Below are positions 1-46,298 of a stretch of 49,144 nucleotides of DNA, one piece after another. The notes beneath the pieces were generated by a model that had not been told where the DNA came from, ran no database searches, and saw only the letters and a program-made list of their open reading frames with translations. The translations under genes were made by a program, and so were the position numbers. Positions within the stretch are counted from its first letter, which is position 1, and each line of letters starts with the position of its first letter. Source of the stretch: Planctomycetota bacterium (lineage in GTDB: Bacteria > Planctomycetota > Planctomycetia > Pirellulales > UBA7805); contig JAYZEI010000003.1 in the NCBI GenBank assembly GCA_036337375.1, forward strand, positions 1 to 49,144, given 5' to 3'.

Positions 1-1185
1 GCGCATTCCATTGCGAAAGGCGATGTATTTCCAGGGCCCCTGGCGAATCGCCAGGCCCGCCGGCGCCTGGTTGATGGTTGCTTCGCGGAGGGGGCCATCC
101 GCTTTACCCAGCAGACCGGGCAGAATACTGACACTGTCCTCGGCCGCGTTGCCCGGCAAATCCGCCCCGAGGATATCGGCGCAGGTGGCAAAAAGATCGT
201 TGAGGCAAATGACCTCGTGGTTTACCGAACCCGCTTTAATATTACCGGGCCAGCGGGCCACAAAAGGCTCGCGGTGGCCGCCTTCGTAAATACTGCTCTT
301 ATGCTCCCGTAACGGCGGGTAAGTGCGGCCTGCGGCCCCATTGTCCCCGGTGGCGATGAGGAGCGTGTTCTTGTCCTGCCCGTTCCGTTTCAGGGCCTCC
401 ATGATCTGGCCCAGCATATGGTCGCCCTGGTAGACCCAGTCGCCGTATTTGCCTTCCTTGCCCTCCATTCCGCTCTTGCCCACGAATTCCTCCGCCGGCA
501 CGATCGGACTATGGGGAGGGCACATCGGGAAATAGAGGAAGAACGGCTTGTCCTCCTTGCGCCGCTCGTCGAGATACTTCAGGGCCTGCCTGATCATCAT
601 GGGCTGGTTCTCGATGCCCTTCACGTTGGCCACTACCCTGTCCTGCTCGATCACCGTCCCGATGTTGCGGGCATGGGTGAAGCCGTAGAAATAATCGAAG
701 CCGAGGGCGTTCGGGCCATCCGTCATGCGGGCTCCAATCGGCAGCTCATTATCCTTGCCCTGTTTGCCGTCCTCCCAATTCATCCCCAGATGCCACTTAC
801 CGATGCAGGCGGTGTGGTACCCTTTGCCCTTGAGGAAGGAGGCTACCGTGAGACGGGTCTTGGGAATAATGGGAGCAGAGTAGGTTTTTAAAACGCCATA
901 CTGGCCGATTCGGCACGGATAACGGCCGGTCAATACCCCGTAGCGGGTGGGCGTGCAGTTGGCGGCCGCCGAGTGCGCGTCGGTAAACCGCATGCCTTGC
1001 CGGGTCAAACGGTCTATATTCGGGGTCTTAAAGGGAGAATCTGCGCGGTAAGACGGCGGCTGCCCGTAGCCCATGTCATCAAACAATACAAAAACTATAT
1101 TGGGTCTTACGTTTTCTGTATCTGCCAGTCCATCCAACGGTTGGCACAGGAAGCCTACACAGAACAGTATTGTTTGTTTCATCAT
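1..1185 (-). CDS. Arylsulfatase (formylglycine-dependent S1 sulfatase), secreted; 3' end runs off the window
   Basis: Not in the ORF track because it has no stop in the window. Manual translation from ATG 1185: MMKQTILFCVGFL...RPNIVFVLFDDMGYG...TPNIDRL...FTDAHSAAANCTPTRYGVLTGRYP (CxPxR motif). The same frame reads AIRQGPWKYI at the window edge. Confidence 0.93.
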   Translation of the reverse strand, partial: MMKQTILFCVGFLCQPLDGLADTENVRPNIVFVLFDDMGYGQPPSYRADSPFKTPNIDRLTRQGMRFTDAHSAAANCTPTRYGVLTGRYPCRIGQYGVLKTYSAPIIPKTRLTVASFLKGKGYHTACIGKWHLGMNWEDGKQGKDNELPIGARMTDGPNALGFDYFYGFTHARNIGTVIEQDRVVANVKGIENQPMMIRQALKYLDERRKEDKPFFLYFPMCPPHSPIVPAEEFVGKSGMEGKEGKYGDWVYQGDHMLGQIMEALKRNGQDKNTLLIATGDNGAAGRTYPPLREHKSSIYEGGHREPFVARWPGNIKAGSVNHEVICLNDLFATCADILGADLPGNAAEDSVSILPGLLGKADGPLREATINQAPAGLAIRQGPWKYIAFRNGMR

Positions 1186-1201
1186 GATCGCTTGCGAAAT
1201 G

Positions 1202-2695
1202 TCAGTCCTTTGTTTGATCCCACAGACGATAGGGATCGTTGAGCCGTTTCATCTCCGAAAGTAATAAAGCCTCCATTTCCTTTAGCTTACCGGCGTACTT
1301 GGGATCGTTTGCTAAGTTGAGCTGGTTGGCCTTCGGCTTGGCTCCGGATTGCGCCTTCACCTGAGGTGCATGGTTTTGCTCGAGGTACTCGTGGGGGTTT
1401 TCCTTCAGGTTGAAAAGCTGGGTTTCGCGAACCTTGCCATCCATGACGTCGTACTTGATCAACTTCCAGTCACCTTTACGGACCGATCGCATACCCGGCT
1501 TGGTGCCGCCGCAGTAAACGCCATAGAGCACCTCGCGGGTCGTCTCCTGCTGGCCCATGAGAACGGGCTTGAAGCTGATCCCCTCGCAAGTAGCGGGCGG
1601 CTTGAACCCGGCGAGGTCACAGAAAGTGGCCATGACATCGAGCAGATAAACATTTCCGAGTGCCCGACTGCCGGGCTTAATCCCGGGGCCCTTTACGAAT
1701 AGCGGAACTCTCCAGGTATGTTCGTAAAGGTTCTGCTTGCCCTGCAACCCGTGACGGCCGATGGCCATGCCGTGGTCGGAGGTGTAGAAGATGTAGGTGT
1801 TGTCGAGCTCGCCCATGGCTTCCAGCTTTTTGAGTACGCGGCCGACCTGGATATCGATGTTCTCGCCGCAGGCGAACTGGCGGCCGATCTCGTTGCGGAG
1901 CGTGATCTGGTCGCGACGCTCCCAGACCCCGCTGACCGACACCTCATCACGCAAACCGGGATGGCCGTGGTGAAAAGGGTGCTTGGGCAACCAGTTCAGC
2001 GGCAGCTTCGGGGCCTGAGGATTCGCCGGAGGCAAGGACTGGCGATCGCGATGGTTCACCGCCCCGTATTTCTTGAGCAGTTCGGGCGTGCCGTCTCGGG
2101 TGTCATGCGGATGGGAGAAGCCAAAGTAGATAAGGAAGGGATCGGTGTCTCTGGCCTTTTCCCTCGCGTTTAGGTAGTTGATCACCTGCTGGCCGTGCCA
2201 GTGGCTGCCGGACTCCTTCGTGCCGCCGCGCTTGGTGGCGTCATGACGCACCGTGAACTGGGCGTTGGCTCCGTTGTGACTGTTGCCGTTCTTGCAGGTG
2301 CGGATGGTGTCGTAACCGGCCGCGTTGAAGATAGCGGGCAGGCAATTTTCGATCGGATTCTCGATGCCGGACTTTTTCTCTTTTTTCAGGTTCTTTTTTC
2401 CACCGGTTCCCTGCAAGTGCCAAACCGTCCGGCCCGTCATGATCATTTTCCGGGAGGGAGAACACACCGCCCCGGACATGGAGCCCATGTGGTAGGCCTG
2501 ATCAAAGGTCATGCCTTGAGCCACCAGCTTGTCCAAAACCGGAGAGTTCAGTGCCGAGGCGGGGTTGTAGGCCTTGAAATCAAACGGCGACTGATCGTCG
2601 GCGATGATGAAGAGAATGTTCGGCCGTTTCTTCGCCTCGGCCTGCGCCACCATGGGCAGCAAACCGGCCAACAGCATAAGCAATAATTTTTTCAT
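1202..2695 (-). CDS. Sulfatase (S1 family), signal peptide
   Basis: PNILFIIADD, active-site CSPSR..MTGR, YTSDHG, GKQNLYE, GDWKLI; Sec signal MKKLLLMLLAGLLPMVAQA. Confidence 0.93.
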   Translation of the reverse strand: MKKLLLMLLAGLLPMVAQAEAKKRPNILFIIADDQSPFDFKAYNPASALNSPVLDKLVAQGMTFDQAYHMGSMSGAVCSPSRKMIMTGRTVWHLQGTGGKKNLKKEKKSGIENPIENCLPAIFNAAGYDTIRTCKNGNSHNGANAQFTVRHDATKRGGTKESGSHWHGQQVINYLNAREKARDTDPFLIYFGFSHPHDTRDGTPELLKKYGAVNHRDRQSLPPANPQAPKLPLNWLPKHPFHHGHPGLRDEVSVSGVWERRDQITLRNEIGRQFACGENIDIQVGRVLKKLEAMGELDNTYIFYTSDHGMAIGRHGLQGKQNLYEHTWRVPLFVKGPGIKPGSRALGNVYLLDVMATFCDLAGFKPPATCEGISFKPVLMGQQETTREVLYGVYCGGTKPGMRSVRKGDWKLIKYDVMDGKVRETQLFNLKENPHEYLEQNHAPQVKAQSGAKPKANQLNLANDPKYAGKLKEMEALLLSEMKRLNDPYRLWDQTKD

Positions 2696-4293
2696 GGATT
2701 TTTCTTTGGCTTCTTCGGCGGCTTGTTCTTGTTTCTTTCCCGAATGATTGGCACGGGTAAACCGTCATCGGGCTGATTCCAAAAACGGTAGGGATCGTCA
2801 TGGCGGCGCATCTCGGTCAGCAGCAGGGCCTCCATTTCCTTGAGCTTTGCGACATATTTCGGGTTGCCCGCCAGATTCAACTGATTTGGGGTCGGCTTGA
2901 TGCCGGTCAGCGCAACCAGCTTGGGATCATGATGCTGCTTGAGGAACTCGTGCGGGTTTTCTTTCAGGTTGAAGAGCTGGGTGTGCCGGACCCCGGTCTT
3001 CTCCACCTGGTACTTCGTCAATTTCCAGTCGCCCTGTCTGACACAGCGGGTCCCCGGCCGGCCACCGCCGCAGTAGACACCGTAAAGGGCATCCCGTACC
3101 GCATCCCTTTCCCCCTCGAGCACAGGCTTGAAGCTGCTGCCTTCCGATGTGGCGGGGGCTCGAATGCCGGACAGATCACAAAGCGTAGCCAGGACATCGA
3201 GCAGATAAATATTCCCCTTTGCCCGCGACCCGGCCTTGATGCCCGGGCCCTTCACGATAAACGGAATGCGCCAGGTGTGATCATACATGTTCTGCTTTCC
3301 CTGCAGACCGTGGCGGCCAATCGCCATGCCGTGGTCAGCGGTGTAAAAAATATAGGTGTTATCCAGTTCCCCCATCGCCTCGAGTTTCTTGATCACACGA
3401 CCGATTTGGATGTCGATATTCTCACTGCAGGCAAACTGCCGGCCGATCTCGTTGCGGATGGTGCGTTCATCGCGCCGGGCCCAAACGCCCTTCACCCCCA
3501 CTTCATCACGCACACCGGTGTGACCGTGGTCGAAAGGATGTTCCGGCAGATAATTGACGGGCAGCGCAGGCTGCTTGGCGTTGGCGGGCGGGATGGTTGC
3601 TTTGTCCGCATGATTGACGGCCCCGTACTTGGCGAGTAGTTCGGGTTTACCGTCGCGCGTGTCGTGTGGATGAGAAAACCCGAAATAGATCAGAAACGGA
3701 TCGGTGTCCTTCGTTGCTTCGCGTTCGTTGAGATAATCCAGAACTTGTTCGGCGTGCCAGTGGCTGCCCTTCTCATCGGTGCCGCCTCGGCGGGTGCCGT
3801 CGTGGCGCACCTGGAAAAGTTTGTTGGCGGCATCGTAGCTATTACCATTTTTACAGGTGCGCATGGTGTCGTAACCTGCCCGGTTAAAAACTGCCGGCAG
3901 CGTGTACTTAACCAGATCCGTCGGAACCATTTTAGGGTTGGTCACGTGCGGATTCATGATCCGCCCGGGCTTGTCAGGAATATGCCAGACCGTACGACCG
4001 CTCATGATCATGTGCCGCGAGGCCGTGCACACGCCACCCACCCATGGGCCCATCTGGTACGCGCCGTCAATGACCATTCCTCTCGCCGCCAGCTGGTCGA
4101 TGTTTGGCGACCGGAGTTCCGATTTCGGGTTGTAGATCTTCAGGTCAAACGGTGACTGGTCATCCGCAATAATGAAAAGAATGTTGGGGCGGTCGTCATT
4201 CGCATTTGCCGTATGAAGGGTGCCGAAAAAGCTTAGCAGCGAAAAAATTATCGCCGTCATTTTATTGAAGTGAGCGAGTGACGTGTTCGCCAT
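2692..4293 (-). CDS. Sulfatase (S1 family), paralog of the adjacent gene
   Basis: PNILFIIADD, active-site CTASR..MSGR, YTADHG; N-terminal signal peptide; AGGA RBS; stop overlaps the next start (ATGA). Confidence 0.93.
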   Translation of the reverse strand: MANTSLAHFNKMTAIIFSLLSFFGTLHTANANDDRPNILFIIADDQSPFDLKIYNPKSELRSPNIDQLAARGMVIDGAYQMGPWVGGVCTASRHMIMSGRTVWHIPDKPGRIMNPHVTNPKMVPTDLVKYTLPAVFNRAGYDTMRTCKNGNSYDAANKLFQVRHDGTRRGGTDEKGSHWHAEQVLDYLNEREATKDTDPFLIYFGFSHPHDTRDGKPELLAKYGAVNHADKATIPPANAKQPALPVNYLPEHPFDHGHTGVRDEVGVKGVWARRDERTIRNEIGRQFACSENIDIQIGRVIKKLEAMGELDNTYIFYTADHGMAIGRHGLQGKQNMYDHTWRIPFIVKGPGIKAGSRAKGNIYLLDVLATLCDLSGIRAPATSEGSSFKPVLEGERDAVRDALYGVYCGGGRPGTRCVRQGDWKLTKYQVEKTGVRHTQLFNLKENPHEFLKQHHDPKLVALTGIKPTPNQLNLAGNPKYVAKLKEMEALLLTEMRRHDDPYRFWNQPDDGLPVPIIRERNKNKPPKKPKKNP

Positions 4294-4708
4294 AAGATGT
4301 ATTCCTGAAACCAGGGGGGAGATGTCGTCTCAAACGATAATGTCCAACGCTTTACGCCGGGCCGCTGACCGTTTCAAGACAGGCCGTTTATCTTTGCGGT
4401 AGCCGATCAACCGTGCTCCGAAGTCGGCGTCGCCTTCCAACATTATATCCGGTCAAAAACTTGCAGGCGTGTCTTTGGGGGGCAATGTTCAATTCGAAGA
4501 CTTGTTCCGCTGCCGCGAAGCGGATTTTTCGATCTGGAAATCGGACAGTGGCTCCCGGTAACGGAACCACAGAGTCGGCGGCCGTTAGATTTTTCCGCCG
4601 TTTCCACGGTATTTGGCCATCGCGCAGCGACCCTGTGCGAGGGCGAACGGCGGGCGGTATCGACACCTCGAATCGCGAGGAGCACGACAACCGCCGGTTA
4701 TCGTTTTG

Positions 4709-4939
4709 TTATCGAGCGTGATAGCATTCGCGACTGCCGACACAATTGCAGCGATCGACCGGCGCATCGTCCGGGCCGACAATGTGCTGCGTGAGGTTGC
4801 ACCAGCAATAATGGCTTCCAGCTTCGTCGAGATGCGATGGATTCAGGTCGCCGGTGACATACATCGCCTTACTGCGCAAATGAACGCAGGCGGGCCCGGC
4901 AGTCACATCACTTTCGTTTACGGTCCGCTGGTAACTCAT
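4709..4939 (-). CDS. Small Cys-rich hypothetical protein (76 aa), fourth gene of the molybdoenzyme operon
   Basis: ATG overlaps the TGA of the FAD subunit (ATGA at 4936-4939) with GGAG upstream; six Cys in the pattern CxHLRSK...CWC...GPD...CxC...C. Confidence 0.7.
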   Translation of the reverse strand: MSYQRTVNESDVTAGPACVHLRSKAMYVTGDLNPSHLDEAGSHYCWCNLTQHIVGPDDAPVDRCNCVGSRECYHAR

Positions 4940-5934
4940 GCGTAGACTCCTCCCGTTGGCGCGGTGGTAGCTTGCAGCAATGCACGTTTTACGGCGACTT
5001 TTGCCAACTGTACTTTGTATTCATTTTGGGAAAGCGGCGCTGCGGCGGATACCGCCGCTAGGCCTGCGGCCTCGGCCGTCGACTCGTTGATCGGCTGACC
5101 GACGATATCTTGTGTTGCTTCCGACGAAACCCAAGGTATCGGCGCGACTTGACCGAGTACGATTTTGGCCCGCTCAACCAGGCCGCCGCGAAGCGAAACA
5201 GCCACCGCCGCTGCAGCGAGCGGATCGTCCTGTCCTTGGCCATGGTGAACTTCGTAGGTTGCGCTGATCACGGTCGGCGAACTGGGAATCACAATCGCCG
5301 TCACCACCTGGTTCCGCTTGAGCACGTTTTCGCGTTGCCCTTCACGGCGTGGGGTTTGATACAACTCTTCGAGCGATATCTGTCGCTGGTCGGTCGTTTT
5401 GGGGCCGGCGATACGGACTTCAGTACCCAGCGCGACCAACGCCGGTGCGAGTCGCGACGCGTTGACGAACTTTGCGGGGCCGCTGTTTCCAAGAATCGCG
5501 TGAAAACGATTGTCGCCGTCCACAACCATCCGGCCGTTTTCCGCCAACAGTCCGTGGCCGTCGCGAAAATACCAACATCGCGGCCGCCGGCACAATTCGC
5601 CAGCCAGCGTACTTTGCGATGGGAACTGGATATTTGCCGTGCCGTCGATCGCCTGCCGCAAGGCGTCGAACGGTTCGGTCAGCGGGCAGTCTCGGATTTC
5701 GTCCAATCGCACCGCCGCGCCGATAACGAGGTTGCCCGCTTCGTCGGTGTCGATGCCTTGCATTTCTGCGACGTCGTTGACGTTAACCACAAACTGCGGT
5801 GTAACGATCATCTGCTTCATCAGGCCGATCAAATCCGTGCCGCCGGCGAGCAGCTCGGTCTTGTCCGACTCGGCCGACAATAGATCGAGAAGTTCGTCAA
5901 GGTTGTCGGGTTGTGCGTAGTCGAAGTTGTTCAT
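4936..5934 (-). CDS. Xanthine dehydrogenase/aldehyde oxidoreductase family FAD-binding subunit (PaoB/YagS-like)
   Basis: AGGTDL FAD motif, RPRCWYFR, NRFHAILG, LGQVAPIPW, PLSQNEYKV. Confidence 0.93.
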   Translation of the reverse strand: MNNFDYAQPDNLDELLDLLSAESDKTELLAGGTDLIGLMKQMIVTPQFVVNVNDVAEMQGIDTDEAGNLVIGAAVRLDEIRDCPLTEPFDALRQAIDGTANIQFPSQSTLAGELCRRPRCWYFRDGHGLLAENGRMVVDGDNRFHAILGNSGPAKFVNASRLAPALVALGTEVRIAGPKTTDQRQISLEELYQTPRREGQRENVLKRNQVVTAIVIPSSPTVISATYEVHHGQGQDDPLAAAAVAVSLRGGLVERAKIVLGQVAPIPWVSSEATQDIVGQPINESTAEAAGLAAVSAAAPLSQNEYKVQLAKVAVKRALLQATTAPTGGVYA

Positions 5935-6017: not shown

Positions 6018-8231
6018 TTAGGCATTTTTTAGCGTGTCCAGGACCCGCTTTGGCGTTAATGGCAAAACGGGAACGCGGACGCCGAGGGCGTTACAGACGG
6101 CGTTCGAAATCGCCGCGCCGGTACCGATTACCGGCGGCTCGCCGAGTCCGATGACGCCGCGGGCCCGCTGGCTTTCGGGTTCGTATAGCTCCACAACGAT
6201 GTCGCCGATATCGCCCAGGCGAGGCAGTTTGTAATCGGATAATTCCGCGTTCACAAACGCGCCGGTTTTGGGATCCATGATTCTTTCTTCGAACAGGCTG
6301 TAGGCAATCCCCATAATCACGGCGCCATAAACCTGGCTGGCCGCGGACTTGCGATTGATGATCAACCCCATGTCCTGAACGGCGACGACTGTCTTAATCA
6401 TGACTTGGCCGGTTTCCTTATCGACCGCGACGTGCGCCATTTGCACGCCGCCGACGCCTTCGTCGGAAAGTGGAGATTTCGCGCCACGGCGATGGCTGGC
6501 TGTGGTTTCCAGCGGGTTCATTCCAAGCAGCCCGCAGGCTCCTTTCCAACTGAGGCCCTGCTTTGCGTTTCCGCGGACTTGAATCCGGCCGCCGGTTGCT
6601 TCCAGCGACGCGGCATCCACGCCGAGTTTCGTCGCCACCAGCCCGAACAAATGCGAGGTGGCGTCTTGTGCCGCGCGGCGATGCGATTCGGCAACGGCTC
6701 CGACGGTGGTACTCCCGCCCGAAGCACCGCTGAAGGGGTACTTCGACGAACCGATGTTTACTTTGATGTGACCGACCGGCAAACCGAGAGTCTCGGCCAG
6801 AACCATCGCGCAGACGGTCTTTGTTCCTGTGCCTAGATCCTGCGTCCCGCAGTAGGCTTCAACCCCGCCGTCGGGATGAATCTTCAGCAGGCACGTCGAC
6901 GAATTCGCCACCCCGCCCCACTCGTGGATGGCCATCCCCAGTCCGTCGACAACCGAGCCTTTTTTAGGCCCCTTGCCGTGTGGATGCCATTTGGCCTGCC
7001 AATCGATCAGTTTGGCGGCAACTGCCATTTCGTCCGCATAAACCTCAGCCGTTTGCCGCGACTCGATGTTGACCAGGTTTTTGCGAAAGATATCGTAGCT
7101 GTTCGCGCCCATTTCTGCGGCTAGGTCGTCGTACGCCGTCTGGCTAATCGCGCAGGCTTGTGGGTGGTTGGGCGCCCGCCAAGCGCGGGCAGGATCGGCA
7201 TTGACTTTGACCGCAGTCGAACGCCGCCGATAATTCTTCGGGCGATACACATACGGGATCACTCTGTCACTGACTCCGCCGCCCGTAAACCCGGAACTTC
7301 CCCACTGGTGTGAATCCCAAACCTGAACAATGCCCTTCTCGTCGGCGCCGAGTTTTACCCGGATAAAACCGGACGGCCGATTGCCGGCGATTTTCAGTTC
7401 CTGGTCGCGATCCAGCATGAATTTGACGGGACGGCCGGTCTTCTTGGCGATTTCCGCCGCGGCAATTCCCCAGTAGTCGGGCCGAAATTTGCTGCCAAAT
7501 CCGCCACCGACGTACTCGCAGTGGACATCTACTTCGTCGGCCGTTATCCCCAGCGCGTCGGCGAAGCCGTCGTCGGTGCGGGAGACATTTTGGGTGGACA
7601 ACTCAACTTCTAACCGGTTGCCGTTCCAACGCAGCGTCGAACCATGCGGTTCCAGACAGCAGTGTGTGATCGCCTGAATGCCATATTCGGCCTCGACCAC
7701 GTGCTTGGAGGCTTTCAGCAGCCGCGAAATCTCCTTTTCTTCGAATTCGTCCTCGTCCTCGTCGTCACCCGGTTCGCGTTCCAGCTCAGTTTTGCCACCG
7801 GCCTTCTGGGTGCGGCCGGCCTTCGTTGCGGCATTCAGGTTTTCCTCTTTAACGAAAACGTCCAACAGTTCGTATTCGACCTTCAACGCTGCAACGCCGG
7901 CGGCGGCAGCGCCTTCGGATTCGGCCGCGACGGCCGCCAGCAACTCACCTTGGAAGTGAATTTCGGGCAGCTTCTCGCCCTTGGGTTCGCGGAGGACGTG
8001 GACGCAGACGACACCGGGAACTTTTTCGGCGGCGGCGGCGTCGATCGACTTAATTCGGCAATGCGCGTGGGGGCTGTCGAGCGACTTCACAATCAGCTGA
8101 TTTTCAAAGTTCACGTCGTAGGTGTACTTGGCGGCACCGGTCGCTTTATCCAGACCGTCCAGCCGATCGAGTGATTTGCCAATGACTTTGGCGTTCTTTG
8201 CGGAAGGCCAGTTGTATTGAGCTTCAGCCAT
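6018..8231 (-). CDS. Xanthine dehydrogenase family molybdopterin-binding subunit (PaoC/YagR-like)
   Basis: KATGAAKY, LEPHG, GGGFGSK, RAP, QDLGTGT, SGGSTT and the catalytic-Glu motif GLGEPP. Confidence 0.95.
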   Translation of the reverse strand: MAEAQYNWPSAKNAKVIGKSLDRLDGLDKATGAAKYTYDVNFENQLIVKSLDSPHAHCRIKSIDAAAAEKVPGVVCVHVLREPKGEKLPEIHFQGELLAAVAAESEGAAAAGVAALKVEYELLDVFVKEENLNAATKAGRTQKAGGKTELEREPGDDEDEDEFEEKEISRLLKASKHVVEAEYGIQAITHCCLEPHGSTLRWNGNRLEVELSTQNVSRTDDGFADALGITADEVDVHCEYVGGGFGSKFRPDYWGIAAAEIAKKTGRPVKFMLDRDQELKIAGNRPSGFIRVKLGADEKGIVQVWDSHQWGSSGFTGGGVSDRVIPYVYRPKNYRRRSTAVKVNADPARAWRAPNHPQACAISQTAYDDLAAEMGANSYDIFRKNLVNIESRQTAEVYADEMAVAAKLIDWQAKWHPHGKGPKKGSVVDGLGMAIHEWGGVANSSTCLLKIHPDGGVEAYCGTQDLGTGTKTVCAMVLAETLGLPVGHIKVNIGSSKYPFSGASGGSTTVGAVAESHRRAAQDATSHLFGLVATKLGVDAASLEATGGRIQVRGNAKQGLSWKGACGLLGMNPLETTASHRRGAKSPLSDEGVGGVQMAHVAVDKETGQVMIKTVVAVQDMGLIINRKSAASQVYGAVIMGIAYSLFEERIMDPKTGAFVNAELSDYKLPRLGDIGDIVVELYEPESQRARGVIGLGEPPVIGTGAAISNAVCNALGVRVPVLPLTPKRVLDTLKNA

Positions 8232-8838
8232 TTCGGCCTCCTTTCACAATCGACGTAGCAGCTTGGATGACGTTCGCGTATGTCCCGCACCGACAGATAT
8301 TACCGTTGAGTCCGCGGCGTATCTCGGCTTCCGATGCTTTGGGATGCTTGCTCAAGAAAGCTCGCACAGCGAGGACGAAGCCTGGCGTGCAGAAGCCGCA
8401 TTGTTCGGCGTCATGCTGGACAAATGCCTGCGGGATGGCGTCGGGTTTATCGCCGCCGAGGCTCTCGACGGTTTCAATCTCCTTGCCGCGTGCCGCCAGT
8501 GCCAAGGTCGTTGAGGCCATAATCGGCTTGCCACCAACCAGCACGGTACTCGCGCCGCTGCTGCCGTCGCTGCTGACGGGTTTCGCGCCCGTCAGTTCGA
8601 GTTGATATCGCAAAACTTCAAGCAGCGTCGTTCGCGGCTCAACGGTAACGCGGTGCGATTTACCGTTGATGGTCAGCGAAATGGTCGTCGCGCCGCTAAT
8701 TACCTTTTTCGCGCCTTTCTCTTCCGCCATAGCTTCGGCGGTGGCGGTTCCCAGCGCGGTGGCGGCTGCCGCTGCGCTGGACCCTTTGAGAAATTCACGG
8801 CGAGAGAAGCCAGACCCGTTTTCGGATGTGCCTGCCAT
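8224..8838 (-). CDS. Fe-S subunit of the molybdoenzyme (PaoA/YagT-like), Tat signal; first [2Fe-2S] motif degenerate
   Basis: Tat motif SRREFLK; EPRTTLL..LR; intact QCGFC...CRC; N-terminal cluster motif reads SSDGSSGAS. Confidence 0.93.
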   Translation of the reverse strand: MAGTSENGSGFSRREFLKGSSAAAAATALGTATAEAMAEEKGAKKVISGATTISLTINGKSHRVTVEPRTTLLEVLRYQLELTGAKPVSSDGSSGASTVLVGGKPIMASTTLALAARGKEIETVESLGGDKPDAIPQAFVQHDAEQCGFCTPGFVLAVRAFLSKHPKASEAEIRRGLNGNICRCGTYANVIQAATSIVKGGRNG

Positions 8839-22849: not shown

Positions 22850-22972
22850 TATTCGGGGTTCGGCTGCAGAAACAGTTATTTAACACCCTGTCTCAGCCGC
22901 CGGTATTTCTGCAGTACGCAGCCGGCGACGTGGACTGGGCATCGAAGAAAGATGCCCGCAGGAACGCTCGCG

Positions 22973-24361
22973 ATGTACGATACCGTCATTATCGGCGCCG
23001 GCATGTCGGGTTTGGCCGCGGGAATCCGGCTGGCGTATTACGATCGGCGCGTTTGCATTCTTGAACGGCACACGACGATCGGCGGTTTAAATTCGTTCTA
23101 TCGATTGGGCGGCCGCAACTACGATGTCGGCCTGCACGCGGTCACGAATTACACCCCCAAGGGCGCCCGCAAAGGTCCGTTGGCACGATTGCTGCGGCAG
23201 TTGCGGATGCAGTGGGAGGACTTTGGACTCGCGCCGCAGATCGGTTCTGAGATCGCGTTTCCCGATGTGCGGATGCGGTTTGGAAATAATTTTGAGTTAT
23301 TTCAGGCCGAAGTCGAGCGGTGCTTTCCGGATCAGAGAGATAATTTCAAAAAACTGCTCGACAAGATTGTCGATTACGATGACTTGAAACAAGATTTGTT
23401 CAATATCACGGCACGGCCGATTCTGCGAGAGACGATTACCGATCCGCTGCTGGTCGAAATGATACTGTGTCCGATTATGTGGTACGGCAATCCGCGGGCG
23501 CGGGACATGGATTTTGGGCTGTTCTGTATTATGTTCCGCAGCATTTTTCTTGAGGGGTTTGCGCGACCATTTGAGGGTGTGCGAATCATATTAAAGAAAC
23601 TGGTCCACAAGTTTCGTAATCTCGGTGGCGAACTAAAACTGCGGGCGGGCGTGAGTCGCATTAAAGTGGAAAACGGCAGGGCGAGTGGTGTGGTGCTGGA
23701 GGACGGCCAGGAGCTTGCCGCGAGGCAGGTGCTCTCGTCGGCCGGATGGATTGAAACGATGCGGATGTGCGACGAAGCTGAAGAGGTCGACGCTTCGCAG
23801 GCGGGGAATCTGTCATTTGTCGAGGCAATTGCGGTGCTCGATAAGCAGCCGCGAGAATTGGATCACCACCGGACGACCCTGTTTTTCAACGACTCGGAAA
23901 AATTCCATTGGGAACAACCTGACGAACTGTGCGACGTGCGGACGGGCGTTATTTGTTCGCCAAACAACTTTGCTTACGACGACGGCGCATCGTTGGACGA
24001 CGGCATGATCCGCATCACTGCGCAGGCAAATTTTGATCGCTGGATCAGTTTGGAAGACGAGGAATATCAACTGGCCAAACTGCGGTGTTACGATCGCGTT
24101 TTTGAGTCCGGGGTCCGTTTCATGCCTGACGTGCGAAATCATATCATCGATACGGACATGTTTACTCCTAAGACAATCCGGCGATTTACTTCGCACGACA
24201 ACGGCGCGGTCTACGGCGCGCCCCACAAGAGACTGGACGGCGAAACACCCGTTTCGAATTTGTTTCTGTGTGGGACCGACCAGGGATTCGTCGGCATTAT
24301 CGGCGCGATGTTCAGCGGGGTGGCGATGGCGAATCGCTGCCTGAGATCGCTGGTCGCTTAA
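22973..24361 (+). CDS. FAD-dependent oxidoreductase, phytoene desaturase (CrtI)-like
   Basis: IIGAGMSGL Rossmann motif, GGLNS.Y...[15 protein letters not shown]...GAVYG, NLFLCG; AGGA RBS favours ATG 22973. Confidence 0.88.
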
Positions 24362-24395
24362 TCGGTTCTTCATCGACCAATTTACAATCAAACTC

Positions 24396-25868
<1,473 letters not shown>

Positions 25869-27747: not shown

Positions 27748-29562
27748 CTATTCGCCCGCCAAGCCGGGCACGATGTTGCCGGTTGCTCGGCGAACGGTGT
27801 TGTCGTGACAGAGCACTTTTGACGCGCCAACGAAGTATGTGTGGGAGTCGGCTACGACCAAATTGTATGTCTCGGCCTCTTCGGCCTGATCCACGGTGCT
27901 GGCCGTCGCCGTTCCGTTGACGGCATGTAACTGTGCCCCGCTTTTTAAGTCGCGAGACTTGACCCAGCCATCCCCGGAAACCCAGAACAAGTGGCCGCCG
28001 CTGGTGGTGACTTCACTCCCGTTGATGCTGATCTTGGTCAGTTTGCTCTTGGGCCGAACGGTCGTGGCCAAAACGGGTTTATAGACAAGTTCTCCGGTTT
28101 CAACATCCTGCGAGAGCACGAGGTCGCCGACCTGAATCTTTTCAATTGCGCGAGGTCCCGTGTTGGTCCAGACCATCGTACCGGCCGCAAGGCAGTCGTA
28201 TGCGCCCCCGCCGCCGCTGGCGAGCAGGCTGGGCGGAATGGCCGACTGATCGATGAGCGAGATTTCTTCTTCGCGGTAAGTCGTAGCCAGTGTCTTGTTA
28301 CCGCTGACATAAACTTCGTTGTGCAGGTTCCACCACTCCCACCACTGTCGCGGTGAGTTGAAAACGTTGTCCATGCCTGTCGTGATTTCCAAAGCATCCA
28401 TAATGCGGCGATTTAAATCAATCGTCCGATTATTCTGATCGGTGACGGCTTCCTCTCGCGTTTCCGCCCGATTCCGCACGTCCGAGAGCGCGCGGCGGGT
28501 CGTATCGCGACGGTTGCCGCTGCCATCCACCCGAGGGATGCGCTGGTAGTTGGTATCCAGCACCGTCAGTTCGCGGCTGTCCTGTCCTTCGCGATAAAAT
28601 GCGTGGCGATAGGTGAGCCGCCCACCTCGGCCTTGCAGTACTTCGCGTTGCGTTTGAATCGGCAATCGCAAGGCAGCCAGCATGGCCGGGACAAAGTCGT
28701 CTAACTCACGGTCTTGAAGTTGTTTCGCCGCCGCTTCGCGAACCTTACCGAATTCAGAAAAGATCGCGTGTCGCGCCAAGGAAGTCGAGGCCTCGCTGCC
28801 GCTGAGACCGTCGAGAATATCGATGGCCAGCATCGCCATCGGTTCGCTGTACGTCGAAAGCACGACCTCGACCGCGGGAACGGCGGTCGGATCGGCAATG
28901 TCTTTTAACTGGGCTTTGGCATACTCACGCTGTTTTTTGCTTCGCGACAACACGTTATCCCGAAGTTTTTCCAACCGGGGTCGCCAGAGGGCTAGTGAAG
29001 TGCGAAGTTGTTCGCCGCGGGTCCGCTCGTCGATCAATTCCCGGCGAGTCAGCCACTCATTGTCCACCCGAACGAAGCCCAGCCGCCGTCGAGCTTCGGC
29101 GTGATCGGTTTCGTGTTCAAGGATGCGAGTGAGGTGTGCGCGTTCTTGTTGGAATAGCCGGTTGTCGTGACACCAATTCGCCGTCTTCAGGTTGCCGTGG
29201 GCAGTATCCTTCTCCTCGCTCCGCTTTACGCGATAGCGGGCTAATTTTTTATCGCGGCCGCTGATATCCGGGACTTCGTCTGCTTTGACCCACTGATTTT
29301 TGTATTGCACGTGGCCGGTATGCCAGAGCGCCGGTTTGCATTCGGCCGACTCTGCGAGCGCCTTCTTGAGCAACTGCTCGCGGGCCTTGCCCTGACCGTA
29401 AATCTCACGCTGCAGCGCCTCCGAGACATATTGATCGGCGGCCTTGACCTTTTCGGTCTTGGTTGCCGCGAGGGTCTCGGGCGACCCGAGGGTCAGTGCC
29501 CATCCGTATAAAACCAAAACTCCGAGTGCTTCACGACTGAAGCGAAGATGTGAGCTGGACAT
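27748..29562 (-). CDS. Secreted helical/HEAT-like protein with C-terminal Hint (intein-like) domain
   Basis: Signal peptide; Hint at 27799-28194: CLAAGTMVWT..GPRAIEKIQVGDLVLS...TTSGGHLFWV...TYNLVVADSHTYFVG...CHDN. Confidence 0.9.
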   Translation of the reverse strand: MSSSHLRFSREALGVLVLYGWALTLGSPETLAATKTEKVKAADQYVSEALQREIYGQGKAREQLLKKALAESAECKPALWHTGHVQYKNQWVKADEVPDISGRDKKLARYRVKRSEEKDTAHGNLKTANWCHDNRLFQQERAHLTRILEHETDHAEARRRLGFVRVDNEWLTRRELIDERTRGEQLRTSLALWRPRLEKLRDNVLSRSKKQREYAKAQLKDIADPTAVPAVEVVLSTYSEPMAMLAIDILDGLSGSEASTSLARHAIFSEFGKVREAAAKQLQDRELDDFVPAMLAALRLPIQTQREVLQGRGGRLTYRHAFYREGQDSRELTVLDTNYQRIPRVDGSGNRRDTTRRALSDVRNRAETREEAVTDQNNRTIDLNRRIMDALEITTGMDNVFNSPRQWWEWWNLHNEVYVSGNKTLATTYREEEISLIDQSAIPPSLLASGGGGAYDCLAAGTMVWTNTGPRAIEKIQVGDLVLSQDVETGELVYKPVLATTVRPKSKLTKISINGSEVTTSGGHLFWVSGDGWVKSRDLKSGAQLHAVNGTATASTVDQAEEAETYNLVVADSHTYFVGASKVLCHDNTVRRATGNIVPGLAGE

Positions 29563-38946: not shown

Positions 38947-38979
38947 GCCCGTTTCCTATAACCCTCGATGTGCGACGGC

Positions 38980-39576
38980 ATGGCGACCACCACCCAAATC
39001 GCGGCCTACTTGACCCTGTTTTTTTCCGTCGGGGCGATTTTTCTGTTCGTCAACTTGTTGGTCGGTCGTTTTATTCGGCCGCACGATCCGCACGCCGAAA
39101 AGCAGGAAATCTACGAATGCGGAGAACCGGCGATTGGATCCAGCTTCGTGCAGTTCGATTTGCGGTTCTATGTGGTGGCGCTGGTATTCATCGTTTTTGA
39201 TGCGGAAGTCGCTTTTCTGTTTCCGGCGGCCACCGTCTTTGGCAAGCAGACGCAACTGGAGGAGATGGCCGGCGAGCAAGGCGTACTGAACGGCGCCGCC
39301 GCGCAAGCGATGTTGGACGAAATGTCCGTCGGACAGCCTGCCGCGTCGGAAGCTGGCTCGGCAGCATCGCTGCGGGAGACGATGAGCGATTTCACTTGGT
39401 ACATTTATGTCGCGACGCTGGTGTTCTTTATGGTGCTGTTCGTCGGCTTTGCATACGAATGGAAAACCGGCGCATTCGATTGGGTCCGCGCCGTGCAGCA
39501 GGACCGCAGCCGCGCGCCGCCGCCGCCGGGCGTGAATTCCGTGACGCCCGAAAACGAACCCGCGTTGACGAGTTGA
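38980..39576 (+). CDS. nuoA: NADH-quinone oxidoreductase subunit A (long TM2-TM3 loop)
   Basis: KQEIYECGE, FDLRFYVVALVFIVFDAEVAFLFP, FAYEWKTGAFDW. Confidence 0.93.
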   Translation: MATTTQIAAYLTLFFSVGAIFLFVNLLVGRFIRPHDPHAEKQEIYECGEPAIGSSFVQFDLRFYVVALVFIVFDAEVAFLFPAATVFGKQTQLEEMAGEQGVLNGAAAQAMLDEMSVGQPAASEAGSAASLRETMSDFTWYIYVATLVFFMVLFVGFAYEWKTGAFDWVRAVQQDRSRAPPPPGVNSVTPENEPALTS

Positions 39577-39588
39577 GCGAGCCGCAAA

Positions 39589-40113
39589 ATGTCTGATCTG
39601 ATCGGCCGACTAAAAAACAAGTTTGGCGACATCATTACCGGTGCGAATGTCGAGGCGCTCGATCCTTGGGTCGAAGTTGCCCCGGACGGTCTCGTCGAAA
39701 TCTGCACGTATCTGCGCGACGAACCCGATTTGCGGTTCGATATGTTGCAGTGCATTTCCGGTGTCGACTATTGCGAGCCGGACCCCAAGAAGGCGGCCAA
39801 GCTCGATTGGGAACCGCATCTGGAAGTGGTTTACCATTTATGGAGCATCCCGAATAAAGCGAGCTTGGTCGTAAAAGTAATCCTGCCCCGCTGGCAGGAC
39901 GGCAAAGAAGGCGAACTGCCCAGCGTGCCGTCGGTCAGTGGAATCTGGAGCACGGCGGATTGGCACGAGCGCGAGGTTTTCGATTTGTCCGGGGTCGATT
40001 TTGTCGGGCATCCAAATCTGCGGCGGATTCTCTGCCCGGAGGATTGGGTCGGTCACCCGCTCCGCAAAGACTACGAAATGCCCTTGGAATACCACGGAAT
40101 AAGATGCCGCTGA
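39589..40113 (+). CDS. nuoC: NADH-quinone oxidoreductase subunit C
   Basis: ISGVDY, EVVYHL.S, ADWHEREVFDLSGVDFVGHPNLRRIL.PEDWVGHPLRKDY. Confidence 0.95.
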   Translation: MSDLIGRLKNKFGDIITGANVEALDPWVEVAPDGLVEICTYLRDEPDLRFDMLQCISGVDYCEPDPKKAAKLDWEPHLEVVYHLWSIPNKASLVVKVILPRWQDGKEGELPSVPSVSGIWSTADWHEREVFDLSGVDFVGHPNLRRILCPEDWVGHPLRKDYEMPLEYHGIRCR

Positions 40114-40152
40114 GAAGGTCGATGGCAGCAACGCTGTTTTGAGTAAGTTTTT

Positions 40153-40187
40153 TCACCCCTCACCCCTCACCACTGACCCCTGACCCT
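40153..40187. repeat. Heptamer tandem repeat x5 upstream of nuoD
   Basis: TCACCCC TCACCCC TCACCAC TGACCCC TGACCCT. Confidence 0.85.
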
Positions 40188-40191
40188 TGAA

Positions 40192-41394
40192 ATGGCGACT
40201 GTCGACGATCCCCGCATTATCGAGTTCGACGTCCGTACGGACGAAATGTTGGTCAACATGGGCCCGCAGCATCCCAGTACGCACGGCGTGTTGCGGCTCG
40301 TGCTGCGGACCGATGGTGAGATCGTCTCGGAAGTCACGCCTTACATCGGCTATCTGCACCGCTGTGCAGAGAAGATCGGCGAAAACTTGACGCCGCGGCA
40401 GTGGATTCCATACACCGACCGGATGGATTACTTGGCCGGGATGAATATGAACCTCGGCTGGGCGATGTGCGTCGAGAAATTGATGAACCTACAGTTGCCC
40501 GAAAAAGGGCGGCATTTGCGCGTGATCATCGCCGAAATGGGCCGTATTGCCAGCCACTTGGTTGGCATGGGGGCATACGGGCTTGACCTGGGAACTTTCA
40601 GCCCGTTCCTTTACGCCTTCCGCGAGCGGGAAAAGATTTTGGATTTGTTCGAAGAAGCCTGCGGCGCTCGGTTGACGTACAGCTATCTGACCGTCGGTGG
40701 TGCGACGGCCGATCTGCCTAACGGTTGGCTGCAAAAATGCGAAGCGTTTCTTGAAGGGTTGTTGCCGGTCATCGACGAATGCCACACGTTGCTGACGACC
40801 AATTCGATTTTCGTCAAACGTACGGCTAACATTGGCGTCATGTCGGGGGAGATGGCGATCGACTACGGCTGCACCGGGCCGGTGCTGCGGGGTAGCGGTG
40901 TCGACCATGACCTACGGCGGGACGGTGAAGAGTTCTACACCAGCATGTACGACGGTTACGCGTTCGAAGTGATTGTCGAAAAGGACGGCCATTATCCTCA
41001 GGATCACGAATATCCGGTCGTGCCTCACGAAGCTGCCTTGGGCGACTGTTGGCATCGCTTTTACGTAAGGATGCTAGAAGTCCGCCAGGCGATCGACCTG
41101 GTCCGCCAGGCAATGGACCGTTACAGCACGGCAACCGGTTCCTACGGCGAGCCGGTGAAGCTCAACGAAAAGTTGCCGAAAGGCGAAGCGTACCTGGAAA
41201 CGGAGGCCCCCCGCGGCCAAATGGGCTTTTATGTCGTTAGCGACGGCTCGGCGATTCCCTGGCGAGCACGAGCGCGCAGCAGTAGTTTTTGCAATCTTTC
41301 AGTAACCGGTCCGCTTTGTAAAAACACGCTAATTGCCGACATTCCGGCGATCGTCGGCTCGCTCGATGTTGTCATGGGTGAGATCGATCGCTGA
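40192..41394 (+). CDS. nuoD: NADH-quinone oxidoreductase subunit D
   Basis: NMGPQHPSTHGVLRL, IGYLHR.AEK, DRMDY, EAPRGQMG, SLDVVMGEIDR. Confidence 0.96.
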   Translation: MATVDDPRIIEFDVRTDEMLVNMGPQHPSTHGVLRLVLRTDGEIVSEVTPYIGYLHRCAEKIGENLTPRQWIPYTDRMDYLAGMNMNLGWAMCVEKLMNLQLPEKGRHLRVIIAEMGRIASHLVGMGAYGLDLGTFSPFLYAFREREKILDLFEEACGARLTYSYLTVGGATADLPNGWLQKCEAFLEGLLPVIDECHTLLTTNSIFVKRTANIGVMSGEMAIDYGCTGPVLRGSGVDHDLRRDGEEFYTSMYDGYAFEVIVEKDGHYPQDHEYPVVPHEAALGDCWHRFYVRMLEVRQAIDLVRQAMDRYSTATGSYGEPVKLNEKLPKGEAYLETEAPRGQMGFYVVSDGSAIPWRARARSSSFCNLSVTGPLCKNTLIADIPAIVGSLDVVMGEIDR

Positions 41395-41611
41395 ATGCGT
41401 CAATTGCTCTCGATTTTCCATGGAAACACACCAATCCGACCCCGCAGGGGCTTGCCCATTCGCACCTGCTTGTGCCATATTTCACGGTCTTAAAAGCTTG
41501 GAAAACACTACCGGCTTAACCCTAGGCAGCACCAGGGCTTTGGCGGTCCTCCGCTCGCCGTACGAGAATCGATTACGCCGCCGCGATAGTTCGCGATAGT
41601 TCAAGGAAGCT

Positions 41612-42829
41612 GTGGCTGAGTTCATTAACGAGAAAATCCTAACTTGTTTGTTGGGATGGCTTTTTGGCACATTTAACGCCGACCACTGGCTCGGGCACGT
41701 TGTTGTTGCGCTGGTTGCGGCTTTTCTGATCATCAACCTGATCGCGGTTGGTGCGCTGGTTTTCATTTGGCTTGAGCGGAAAATAGCCGGCCGTATCCAG
41801 GATCGGCTGGGGCCGACCCGCGTTGGCGGCAAGTTCGGTTGGCTACAAACGCTGGCCGACGGTATCAAGTTGATCAGCAAAGAAGACATTACGCCCGGCG
41901 CGGCCGACCGGATGCTGTTCAAGATCGCGCCCTATATCGCCTTTTGCGCTTCGTATGGCTCGTTTATTGCGCTGCCGTTTGCCACCGGCTGGGTCGGCCT
42001 AGAGTTGAACGTTGCGGTGTTCTTTGTCGTGGCGGTGTTGGGGTTGGAAGTCTTTGGTGTCATCCTGGCCGGTTACGCGTCGGGGTCCAAATGGTCGTTG
42101 TTCGGTGCCATGCGGGAGGCGGCCCAAGTGGTCAGCTATGAAGTCCCACTTGGTCTGTGCGTCGTCATTCCCGTGATGATCGCCGGCAGCATGGACCTGA
42201 CCGTCATTGGCGACCAGCAGGCGGGGTTGTTCACAAATTGGTATATCTTTCACGACCCGTTTGCGTTCGTCACGTTTTGGGTTTATTTCACGTGTGCGAC
42301 CGCGAGTGTCAATCGGGCGCCGTTTGATTTGGCGGAGGCGGAAAGCGAATTGGTCGCCGGTTTTCACACGGAGTATTCCGGCCTCCGCTGGAGCATCTTC
42401 TTTATGGCCGAATACGGTTCGATGCTGTTGGTATCGGGTCTCGGTGCAATCCTGTTTTTGGGCGCCTGGAACGGGCCGATTCCGATTACGGCGGTTTTGG
42501 ATACAAATAGCGGGTTCCTTTGGTTCGTAGCAAACGTGCTGGGGGTGATGAACTTTTTGCTCAAGGCCGTCGTTTTAGTGATCTTGATGATGTGGATCCG
42601 CTGGACGTTTCCACGCTTGCGCATCGACCAGGTGATTACGACATGTTGGAAATACTGCACGCCCATTGCCGGAGTGATGTTCGTCGGAGTGATTACGTGG
42701 CAGGCGTTGGGACTGCCTAATGGTGGAGACCTGCTGCCGCCGCCCGCAGACACCACCGTCGAAGTCGGCGAGACGACTTACGAGGTAGGCGTACGTCGGC
42801 AAGTTGCCGACAAGATTGAAAAAGAATAA
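41612..42829 (+). CDS. nuoH: NADH-quinone oxidoreductase subunit H
   Basis: ERKIAGRIQDRLGPTRVG, LADGIKLISKED, NRAPFDLAEAESELVAGFHTEYSG, PRLRIDQ. Confidence 0.96.
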   Translation: MAEFINEKILTCLLGWLFGTFNADHWLGHVVVALVAAFLIINLIAVGALVFIWLERKIAGRIQDRLGPTRVGGKFGWLQTLADGIKLISKEDITPGAADRMLFKIAPYIAFCASYGSFIALPFATGWVGLELNVAVFFVVAVLGLEVFGVILAGYASGSKWSLFGAMREAAQVVSYEVPLGLCVVIPVMIAGSMDLTVIGDQQAGLFTNWYIFHDPFAFVTFWVYFTCATASVNRAPFDLAEAESELVAGFHTEYSGLRWSIFFMAEYGSMLLVSGLGAILFLGAWNGPIPITAVLDTNSGFLWFVANVLGVMNFLLKAVVLVILMMWIRWTFPRLRIDQVITTCWKYCTPIAGVMFVGVITWQALGLPNGGDLLPPPADTTVEVGETTYEVGVRRQVADKIEKE

Positions 42830-42834
42830 ATCTT

Positions 42835-43458
42835 ATGGAAATTAACTGGCATTCGCTGTACTTCCTGCTGTTCGCGAGCATCGCGTGCATTTTCGCCTTG
42901 GCGGTCGTGTTCACGGCGAACGTGGTGCGGATGGCGTTTTATTTGATGCTTTCTCTGGCGGCGACTGCCGGCTTGTTCTTTTTGGCGGGAGCCGATTTTG
43001 TCGGCGCGATGCAGTTGGTATTGTACGTCGGCGGAACGCTGGTGCTGTTGGTCTTCGGCGTCATGCTGACGGCGCAAAGCCCGTTTATTTCGATAAGGAC
43101 CGGTGGTGGCGATTGGGTGTTAGCGGCGATCGTTGGCGGTTTGTTCCTGGCGGTGCTGATTCCGGCTGCGGTGCAGTCCGGCGCGTCGCACGAAAATTTC
43201 CCCAAAAACGTCGCCGCATCCGAGGAAGATGCTGTCTCGGCTGATACGGCCGAAGAGCCTGCCAGCGAACCGACCGCCGCACGAATTGGTTTAGCTCTGC
43301 TCGGCGCACCGGCGGACGGTTCGAAGGGCGGCAGCGGGTATCTGCTTCCGTTTGAAATAATCTCAATTCATTTGCTTGTTGTTCTGGTCGGCGCCGCTTA
43401 TTTGGCGAGGCCGAAGCGGCGGGCGACGCCCGAAAAAAACGTCGCTGAGGAAAGTTGA
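42835..43458 (+). CDS. nuoJ: NADH-quinone oxidoreductase subunit J
   Basis: ADFVGAMQLVLYVGGTLVLLVFGVML, YLLPFEIISIHLLVVLVGA. Confidence 0.94.
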   Translation: MEINWHSLYFLLFASIACIFALAVVFTANVVRMAFYLMLSLAATAGLFFLAGADFVGAMQLVLYVGGTLVLLVFGVMLTAQSPFISIRTGGGDWVLAAIVGGLFLAVLIPAAVQSGASHENFPKNVAASEEDAVSADTAEEPASEPTAARIGLALLGAPADGSKGGSGYLLPFEIISIHLLVVLVGAAYLARPKRRATPEKNVAEES

Positions 43459-43464
43459 ACCTGA

Positions 43465-43502
43465 AGGCCCTCCCTCGAACGGGAGGACTGGCGAGGGGTG
43501 AA
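43465..43502. repeat. REP-like palindromic element between nuoJ and nuoK
   Basis: CCCTCCCTCGAACGGGAGGACTGGCGAGGGGTGAA; its reverse complement begins TTCACCCCTC like the element at 5971. Confidence 0.55.
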
Positions 43503-43510
43503 AAAAAGTC

Positions 43511-43855
43511 ATGAATCTACTAACAGATCCGGTCACCATTTCGCACTACCTGATTGTCGGCTCCGTCATGTTTGTTGCCGGCGCGGTGTGCATGGCGACG
43601 AAACGCAATGCGTTGGGCGTGTTGATGGGTATCGAGTTGGTGCTCAACGGCGCAAACATCAACTTTGTCGCCTTCGGCTCGGAAATTCTCGCCAGAAACC
43701 CGCATTACCGATTGGGCCTGGACGGTCAGATTATTGCCTTGTTCGTGATCGTGTTGGCTGCTGCCGAAGCGGCCGTAGCCTTGGCGATTGTACTGAATTT
43801 TTATAACAACCACGCGACCGTGGACGTGGACCGCGCAGATGAGTTGAAGGGCTAA
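43511..43855 (+). CDS. nuoK: NADH-quinone oxidoreductase subunit K
   Basis: RNALGVLMGIELVLNGANINFV, GQIIALFVIVLAAAEAAVALAI. Confidence 0.96.
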   Translation: MNLLTDPVTISHYLIVGSVMFVAGAVCMATKRNALGVLMGIELVLNGANINFVAFGSEILARNPHYRLGLDGQIIALFVIVLAAAEAAVALAIVLNFYNNHATVDVDRADELKG

Positions 43856-46260: not shown

Positions 46261-46298
46261 TCGAGGCTTTCGCCTACATAAATTGGACCAGTTAAACG

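Follow-up and report, generated by a model that had tools for sequence, protein, structure and literature searches.

In this work, we show that the small subunit of a molybdenum hydroxylase from a planctomycete carries Ser at all four positions at which solved relatives have the Cys ligands of the outer [2Fe-2S] cluster (FeS II), and that the Cys-less loop is a trait fixed in one clade, whose members belong to Pirellulales or other Planctomycetota where they are named. At the sequence level the FeS II ligands are gone, and FeS I, the Mo-site motifs and the main FAD motif have been conserved. The reading that we favour, to which we would give odds of about three in four, is that FeS II has been lost from a PaoABC-like, Tat-signalled enzyme in which the fold and the emptied loop are still selected, and that the chain Mo -> FeS I -> FeS II -> FAD would be cut. 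The window, that is, the whole stretch of DNA analysed, comprises 49,144 nt of contig JAYZEI010000003.1 from the assembly GCA_036337375.1 of a Planctomycetota bacterium (Pirellulales; UBA7805).

The gene for the small (iron-sulfur) subunit, which is PaoA/YagT-like and 204 aa long, lies at 8224..8838 on the minus strand, as delimited by its ORF and by PDB matches. Its product starts with a twin-arginine (Tat) signal containing FSRREFLKG (residues 11-30; 8749..8808, minus strand), recognized by Pfam TAT_signal (PF10518, 1.7e-06) and by NCBIfam TIGR01409. A Fer2_2 domain (Pfam PF01799, 8.6e-26) occupies residues 123-194 (8257..8472, minus strand), with the FeS I ligands Cys147, Cys150, Cys182 and Cys184 intact. 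The former FeS II binding loop (residues 82-113; 8500..8595, minus strand) reads LTGAKPV-S-SDGS-S-GA-S-TVLVGGKPIMA-S-TTLA in the minus-strand ORF. Among solved structures, phmmer matched the subunit to PaoA (5g5g_A, 6.7e-32) and 5y6q_A (7e-32), and further to quinoline oxidoreductase (1t3q_A) and CO dehydrogenase (1ffu_A), the set spanning 7e-32 to 3e-31. All four alignments run ungapped across the loop and place Ser89, Ser94, Ser97 and Ser109 on the four N-terminal [2Fe-2S] Cys of the solved relatives (..GTKKGCDHGQCGACTVLV....ACLTLA).

The initial annotation, made from the letters of the window, had already read Ser at all four of these positions, and both the codons and the ungapped alignments bear it out; the span that it gave to the substitutions, 8512..8574, has the first and the fourth Ser codon as its exact limits. 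The codons had also been read correctly, Ser89 being AGC (8574-8572), Ser94 AGC (8559-8557), Ser97 AGT (8550-8548) and Ser109 TCA (8514-8512). What does not stand is the additional argument that AGY codons are a single step away from TGY. Across 27 window ORFs, 39% of Ser codons are AGY, and the argument carries no weight because three AGY out of four is not significant when judged within the window alone (p=0.16). The whole small subunit contains four Cys, at 147, 150, 182 and 184. Since these are all FeS I ligands, no Cys-bound second cluster is possible in this subunit. In the Pfam search, Fer2 (PF00111) was not found in it even at E<=10, whereas the canonical sisters P0124, P0501 and P0130 do match this family.

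To place the loop among its relatives, we took the best 120 matches from a set of 5.8 billion proteins, which are 68-99% identical to the small subunit of the window. None of them has a PF00111 match in the precomputed Pfam column, and in none of the 120 are the four Cys present. The residues at the four positions could be read by pattern in 114 relatives: 101 have SSSS, four SSAS, three SCSA and two TSSS, and SSSA, SSSE, SCAT and CSAN occur once each, so that a single Cys is found at these positions in 5/114. The remaining 6 of the 120, missed by the pattern, likewise have Ser-rich loops without the Cys. It had been proposed that related sequences be aligned, and the alignment shows the Ser loop to be fixed in a clade that numbers over 100 independent sequences from the database. 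Names are given for few rows only, and these are metagenome-assembled genomes (MAGs) of Pirellulales, Pirellulaceae or 'Planctomycetes'. Chance and sequencing error, the latter of which the initial annotation had argued against, are thereby excluded. We regard a sequencing or assembly artefact, or mutations private to one strain, as an explanation with practically no chance of being right, and it is refuted by six relatives (P0001-P0006, 96-99% identical and from four different sources) and by more than 100 more distant sequences, which carry the same residues.

Among the best 150 representatives at 50% identity plus the query, 126 have CCCC and 11 SSSS, the remainder being variants or fragments. 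A survey of genome contigs with patterns for the C-terminal motif gave at least 80 loci, in which all the matches listed are canonical CCCC and at most 50% identical, and a search of the ESM Atlas returned canonical clusters only. A tree of 79 rows that retained the loop columns placed the 24 Cys-less rows, without exception, in a single clade (SH-aLRT 99), to which the canonical P0124 and then P0130 are successive sisters. After removal of the loop columns (77 rows; P0156, a long-branched fragment, was left out), the 23 Ser-type rows remain one clade (SH-aLRT 95). Both trees are quick LG+G4 reconstructions with midpoint rooting and subsampled canonical rows.

Conservation within the clade was measured in 115 members; P0001-P0006, nearly identical to the window protein, were excluded. 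The stretch L82-V99 (LTGAKPVSxDGSSGASTV) is near-invariant apart from position 90. The four Ser are conserved at 0.97 (Ser89), 0.97 (Ser94), 0.95 (Ser97) and 0.92 (Ser109), with neighbours at 100% standing slightly higher, and the FeS I Cys are conserved at 100%. In the N-terminal domain of the Ser clade, conservation is still highest in the loop. Relative to the C-terminal domain, the loop has a mean entropy of 0.81 in the Ser clade against 0.74 in canonical representatives, and the variability of the whole N-terminal domain is 1.24 against 1.00, ratios that are indicative only, because the two sets differ in depth. Judged from these sequences, the empty loop is under strong purifying selection. 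The conservation of the loop and its Ser exceeds what a mere spacer would need, and this hints at a further function.

One such function would be to hold a metal centre still, either a [2Fe-2S] cluster bound through serinate oxygens (or aspartate oxygens in the second Cys-less clade described below) or another ion (Ca, Mg, mononuclear Fe, Mn), which would either sustain electron transfer or stabilize the fold. A metal other than iron-sulfur would account for how well the oxygen-rich loops are conserved. The high conservation of the Ser (92-97%) in a near-invariant loop is consistent with this, as is Asp91, which is conserved at 95% in the clade and is specific to it, the canonical sequences shown having mostly R, H or Q there. 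Furthermore, single Cys-to-Ser variants of 2Fe ferredoxins can retain their cluster. On the other hand, Ala, Thr, Asn and Glu are tolerated in place of these Ser within the clade, a hard cation would stabilize the fold and not carry electrons, and we know of no natural [2Fe-2S] cluster without any Cys or His ligand. On balance, we consider a retained metal centre improbable.

The fold of the emptied domain was predicted with AF2 from 35 clade sequences. Mean pLDDT is 67.8, rising to 86-89 in the strands and the helix of the N-terminal domain, which keeps the strand-strand-helix-strand-strand layout, and falling to about 57 in residues 81-100 and below 50 in residues 91-94. A Foldseek comparison of the whole model with solved small subunits gave target-normalized TM values of 0.74-0.84. 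The low confidence of the loop is no evidence of disorder, since the FeS I loops, which are intact, reach only 66-67 here as well. In the model, the fold of the N-terminal domain is kept. The proposal of the initial annotation that the cluster was lost and the structure retained is therefore in agreement with the lack of spare Cys, the clade-wide occurrence, the predicted layout and the conserved loop, and the comparisons and the model support it to that extent.

Beyond what had been noted initially, the analysis brought out that the trait is clade-wide, that the [4Fe-4S] Cys of the FAD subunit are missing, and that a second clade of Tat-signalled small subunits without the FeS II Cys exists (P0151 and P0391-P0509). 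The latter was found through two odd representatives, P0143 and P0151, and a search with P0151; the alignment has 122 rows, made up of the window protein, P0124, P0151 and 119 matches. FeS I Cys are kept in all 122 rows. At the FeS II positions, DSDS occurs in 37 rows, DDDG in 28, DADG in 23, DTDG in eight and DSDG in six, and CCCC in only five (P0124, P0495, P0496, P0501 and P0502). Members of the second clade thus have Asp at ligand positions 1 and 3, Ala, Ser, Asp or Thr at position 2, and Gly or Ser at position 4. Where names are given, they are Planctomycetaceae, Planctomycetales or Planctomycetota. These residues cut both ways for a retained metal centre: Asp at positions 1 and 3 would suit it, and the loops of both clades are rich in oxygen donors, but Ala and Gly at positions 2 and 4 are unable to bind metal.

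In the loop-free tree, 22 Asp-type rows group with those five canonical rows (SH-aLRT 96), and the group is sister to the Ser clade. Outside the loop, Asp-type sequences are 0.70 identical to P0495, P0496, P0501 and P0502, 0.69 identical among themselves and 0.56 identical to the Ser type. Two separate losses are favoured because the Asp-type rows group with canonical rows and resemble four of these, which fall inside the divergence of the second clade, as closely as they resemble each other. A tree in which the 45 Cys-less rows are held as one group is 25.2 lnL units worse, but was not rejected by an AU test (p 0.234). As far as the sequences indicate, the second Cys-less clade probably arose separately from the Ser clade.

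The gene for the FAD-binding (medium) subunit (332 aa) lies at 4936..5934 on the minus strand. Its product matches Pfam FAD_binding_5 and CO_deh_flav_C (PF00941, 2.3e-29; PF03450, 1.2e-14) and, among solved structures, 5y6q_B (5.4e-33) and PaoB 5g5g_B (5.1e-21). Alignment to both structures delimits the insertion region that carries the [4Fe-4S] cluster in PaoB-type subunits (residues 109-167; 5434..5610, minus strand). The insertion is kept, but three of its four motif Cys are missing, which leaves Cys120 together with a non-homologous Cys115. We aligned the query with 120 relatives (121 rows, 54-98% identity). One Cys is found in the insertion region of 66 rows, two in 45, three in 10 and four in none, and Cys120 is invariant (121/121). 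Of the 121 rows, 109 have the first FAD motif, AGGTDL, the window protein among them; for the second motif, 85 rows read T-x-G-G-E, 25 V-G-E and 11 A-G-E.

The [4Fe-4S] Cys are also missing from the FAD subunits of five loci that still bear the FeS II ligands (L001, L003, L004, L006 and L007), and are four in number in more distant loci (L002, L005, L008-L011, L013, L014, L016 and L018). Because it is common to FeS II-bearing relatives, the loss of [4Fe-4S] is older or wider than the loss of FeS II, and separate from it. Equal longest-contig figures pair relatives of the small subunit with relatives of the FAD subunit (P0003 with P0271, 7325; P0007 with P0272, 78921; P0071 with P0293, 507728), which suggests that the two genes travel together in the clade.

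Between these genes, at 6018..8231 on the minus strand, lies the gene for the Mo-cofactor (large) subunit (737 aa). Pfam recognizes in it Ald_Xan_dh_C, MoCoBD_1 and MoCoBD_2 (PF01315, PF02738 and PF20256, that is, the a/b-hammerhead and two Moco-binding domains, E 2e-12 to 2e-49), and it matches PaoC (5g5h_C) at 3e-60. The motifs STQNVS, GGGFGSK, RAWRAPNHPQ, QDLGTGT(K/R)T and GLGEPPV are common to it and to the FeS II-bearing L001, L004, L006 and L007, and STQNVS, GGGFGSK, RAWRAPN and GLGEPPV align with PaoC. We take the active-site elements to include a Gln close to Mo=O, GGGFG, the Arg in RAP and the catalytic Glu. Since all active-site motifs are kept, the Mo catalytic site gives no sign of decay. 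The small-subunit gene ends, with its stop, 8 bases inside the start of the Mo-subunit gene (8224-8231, ..ATGGCTGA), which suggests translational coupling, and the FAD-subunit gene follows the Mo-subunit gene after a gap of 83 bases. All three ORFs are intact, and the window copy has no frameshift.

This organization bears on the view that the losses of FeS II and [4Fe-4S] are the erosion of a disused oxidoreductase, now a decaying relic or pseudoenzyme. Two cofactor sites are indeed gone, the second FAD motif is relaxed in the proportions given above, and the N-terminal domain has the raised variability ratio. However, intact reading frames with overlapping small- and large-subunit genes, FeS I Cys without exception in the clade, Mo motifs identical to those of canonical relatives, and a clade that is large and old (68-99% identity in the small subunit, 54-98% in the FAD subunit) with no frameshift in the window copy make such a decay very improbable.

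A strongly acidic run in the Mo subunit (ELEREPGDDEDEDEFEEKE; residues 149-167; 7731-7787, minus strand) lies within a surface loop, the length of which varies widely among relatives; the inserts of L006 and L007 are much longer. The idea that this insert is a docking patch for a cytochrome was dropped in view of the variable loop length.

If FeS II has been lost, as we favour, the N-terminal plant-ferredoxin-like domain would no longer bind a [2Fe-2S] cluster and may persist as a structural piece that joins the FeS I domain to the Mo and FAD subunits and probably contributes to the FAD pocket. Electron flow along the usual path Mo -> FeS I -> FeS II -> FAD would then be interrupted. Enroth and co-workers reportedly gave, in 2000, steps of about 15, 12 and 8 A between successive cofactors. 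With the cluster removed, FeS I would be roughly 20 A away from FAD, farther than the limit of about 14 A that is usually assumed for physiological tunnelling. Electrons from the substrate, which is probably aldehyde-like, would still reach FeS I; from there they may cross the gap to FAD very slowly, or leave for an outside acceptor and bypass FAD. Thus, either electrons would exit by a route not yet described for the family, or the enzyme would be slow. Given the low potentials of these centres, electrons are unlikely to hop through aromatic side chains. The good conservation of the FAD subunit (54-98% identity in 120 relatives) sits oddly with a FAD that is electronically cut off. The family path itself, with FeS II as the outer and more exposed cluster, is outlined in PMC10223205 and PMC12316806, and the Mo-FeS-flavin wire is described in the former, a review. 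The physiological acceptor of E. coli PaoABC is given as not known in PMC3958847.

Compared with known systems, the three proteins have the Mo domains, the active-site motifs, FeS I and the predicted FAD-binding subunit of a three-subunit enzyme within the xanthine oxidase family, and lack its FeS II. Among solved structures, E. coli PaoABC (YagTSR; 5G5G/5G5H) gives the best match, or one close to it, for each of them. Both systems have FeS, FAD and Mo-MCD-type subunits, with FeS I and Mo motifs conserved, and in both the Tat signal is found on the small subunit only, which fits the hitchhiker export outlined for PaoABC in PMC4273604. We conclude that the window system descends from, and works like, PaoABC-type periplasmic molybdenum hydroxylases. 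Nevertheless, it is a distant PaoABC-like enzyme and not PaoABC itself, because its scores fall far below the equivalog cut-offs: NCBIfam PaoA is the top model for the small subunit at 142.6 bits (cut-off 322), and PaoC for the Mo subunit at 303.4 bits (cut-off 1180). It further differs from PaoABC in lacking both the FeS II ligands and the four PaoB [4Fe-4S] Cys, a motif presented as characteristic of PaoABC in a preprint (PMC13404670), and in its gene order, S-L-M. At position 440 of PaoABC, which is Arg or His depending on the structure (5G5G vs 5G5H), the aligned residue of the window is Trp. PaoD is named as the last gene of paoABCD in PMC3909100, whereas XdhC/PaoD-type families, like cytochrome c families, were not found with Pfam among 33 ORFs of the window (beyond 12.7 kb, those with 150 aa or more).

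The aldehyde oxidase of Methylobacillus sp. KY4400 (5Y6Q) has the same three-subunit build. It is the best solved match for the FAD subunit (5.4e-33) and ties with PaoA for the small subunit (7e-32), but it carries the complete FeS II set of four Cys and a further four at the PaoB [4Fe-4S] motif, and the window proteins have neither set. The nearest FeS II-bearing loci among the matches listed are the five already mentioned (L001, L003, L004, L006 and L007), which come from Acidobacteriota and Verrucomicrobiota. They share with the window the S-L-M order, a Tat-type small subunit and a FAD subunit without the [4Fe-4S] Cys, at identities of 47-52% (S), 44-50% (L) and 43-47% (M), and differ from it in keeping all four FeS II Cys.

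A parallel for the removal of one element of the path is the aldehyde oxidoreductase of Desulfovibrio gigas (MOP/AOR; 1VLB/1SIJ), which, according to PMC10223205, has no FAD domain and passes electrons from its exposed FeS II to flavodoxin. The absence of flavin in that enzyme implies that the family tolerates a rewired electron exit. The element dropped is a different one: D. gigas AOR lost the flavin and kept both clusters, whereas the window enzyme kept the flavin subunit and would have dropped the cluster adjoining it. As for the substitutions themselves, Iwasaki and co-workers are said to have made Cys-to-Ser variants of the FeS II motif of rat xanthine oxidoreductase in 2000 to assign its EPR signals. 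In these variants the identical ligand positions were turned to Ser, but as single laboratory substitutions; the window case is natural, fixed, four-fold and clade-wide.

We found no description of a natural xanthine oxidase family member without FeS II ligands in the full-text literature, a body of text that takes in few of the subscription journals, and two [2Fe-2S] clusters are treated as a family constant in PMC4548258 and PMC12316806. A large natural clade, and probably two, with Mo, FeS I and the flavin subunit but without FeS II ligands amounts to a ready-made deletion experiment. It opens to test whether FeS II is needed for turnover, how electrons leave periplasmic enzymes of this kind, and how the fold stays stable after loss of the cluster. 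The clade also matters for annotation: since such proteins are labelled '(2Fe-2S)-binding protein' or 'YagT', they would be counted as two-cluster proteins.

A bolder reading, which we hold only tentatively and think more doubtful than not, is that molybdenum hydroxylases of Planctomycetota have been short-circuited, the cluster beside the flavin having been dropped twice, once in the all-Ser form of Pirellulales and once in the Asp/Ala/Gly form of Planctomycetaceae, with FeS I, Moco and the flavin subunit still selected. If that were true, the electron exit would be new to the family. FeS I might then hand electrons directly to a partner in the periplasm, a non-sulfur metal centre might sit in the oxygen-rich loop, or the exported complex might combine two uncoupled catalysts, one at the Mo site and one at the flavin site.

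The neighbourhood of the operon, as far as Pfam matches of 33 window ORFs go, gives no pointer to a substrate or a partner. Downstream lie three consecutive sulfatase genes (1-4293, minus strand; Pfam Sulfatase 2e-53, 5.6e-37 and 1.9e-32), separated from the operon by a 100-aa ORF without a family match (4388-4690), and an S41 peptidase gene lies upstream. Farther away, a 604-aa protein (27748-29562, minus strand) ends in a pretoxin HINT domain (PF07591, 5.7e-25), its first 450 or so residues having no family match. A run of complex I-type genes (38968-49144, plus strand) encodes homologues of chain 3 (unusually long, 202 aa), the 30 kDa and 49 kDa subunits, NADHdh/chain 1 and chain 6, together with three antiporter-like subunits; the 51 kDa, 24 kDa and 75 kDa families were not found among window ORFs of at least 150 aa. 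Finally, two adjacent genes for amine-oxidase/FAD-dependent oxidoreductase-like proteins of 469 and 490 aa (22952-25868, plus strand) are located after a beta-ketoacyl synthase gene and before an enoyl-ACP-reductase-like gene.
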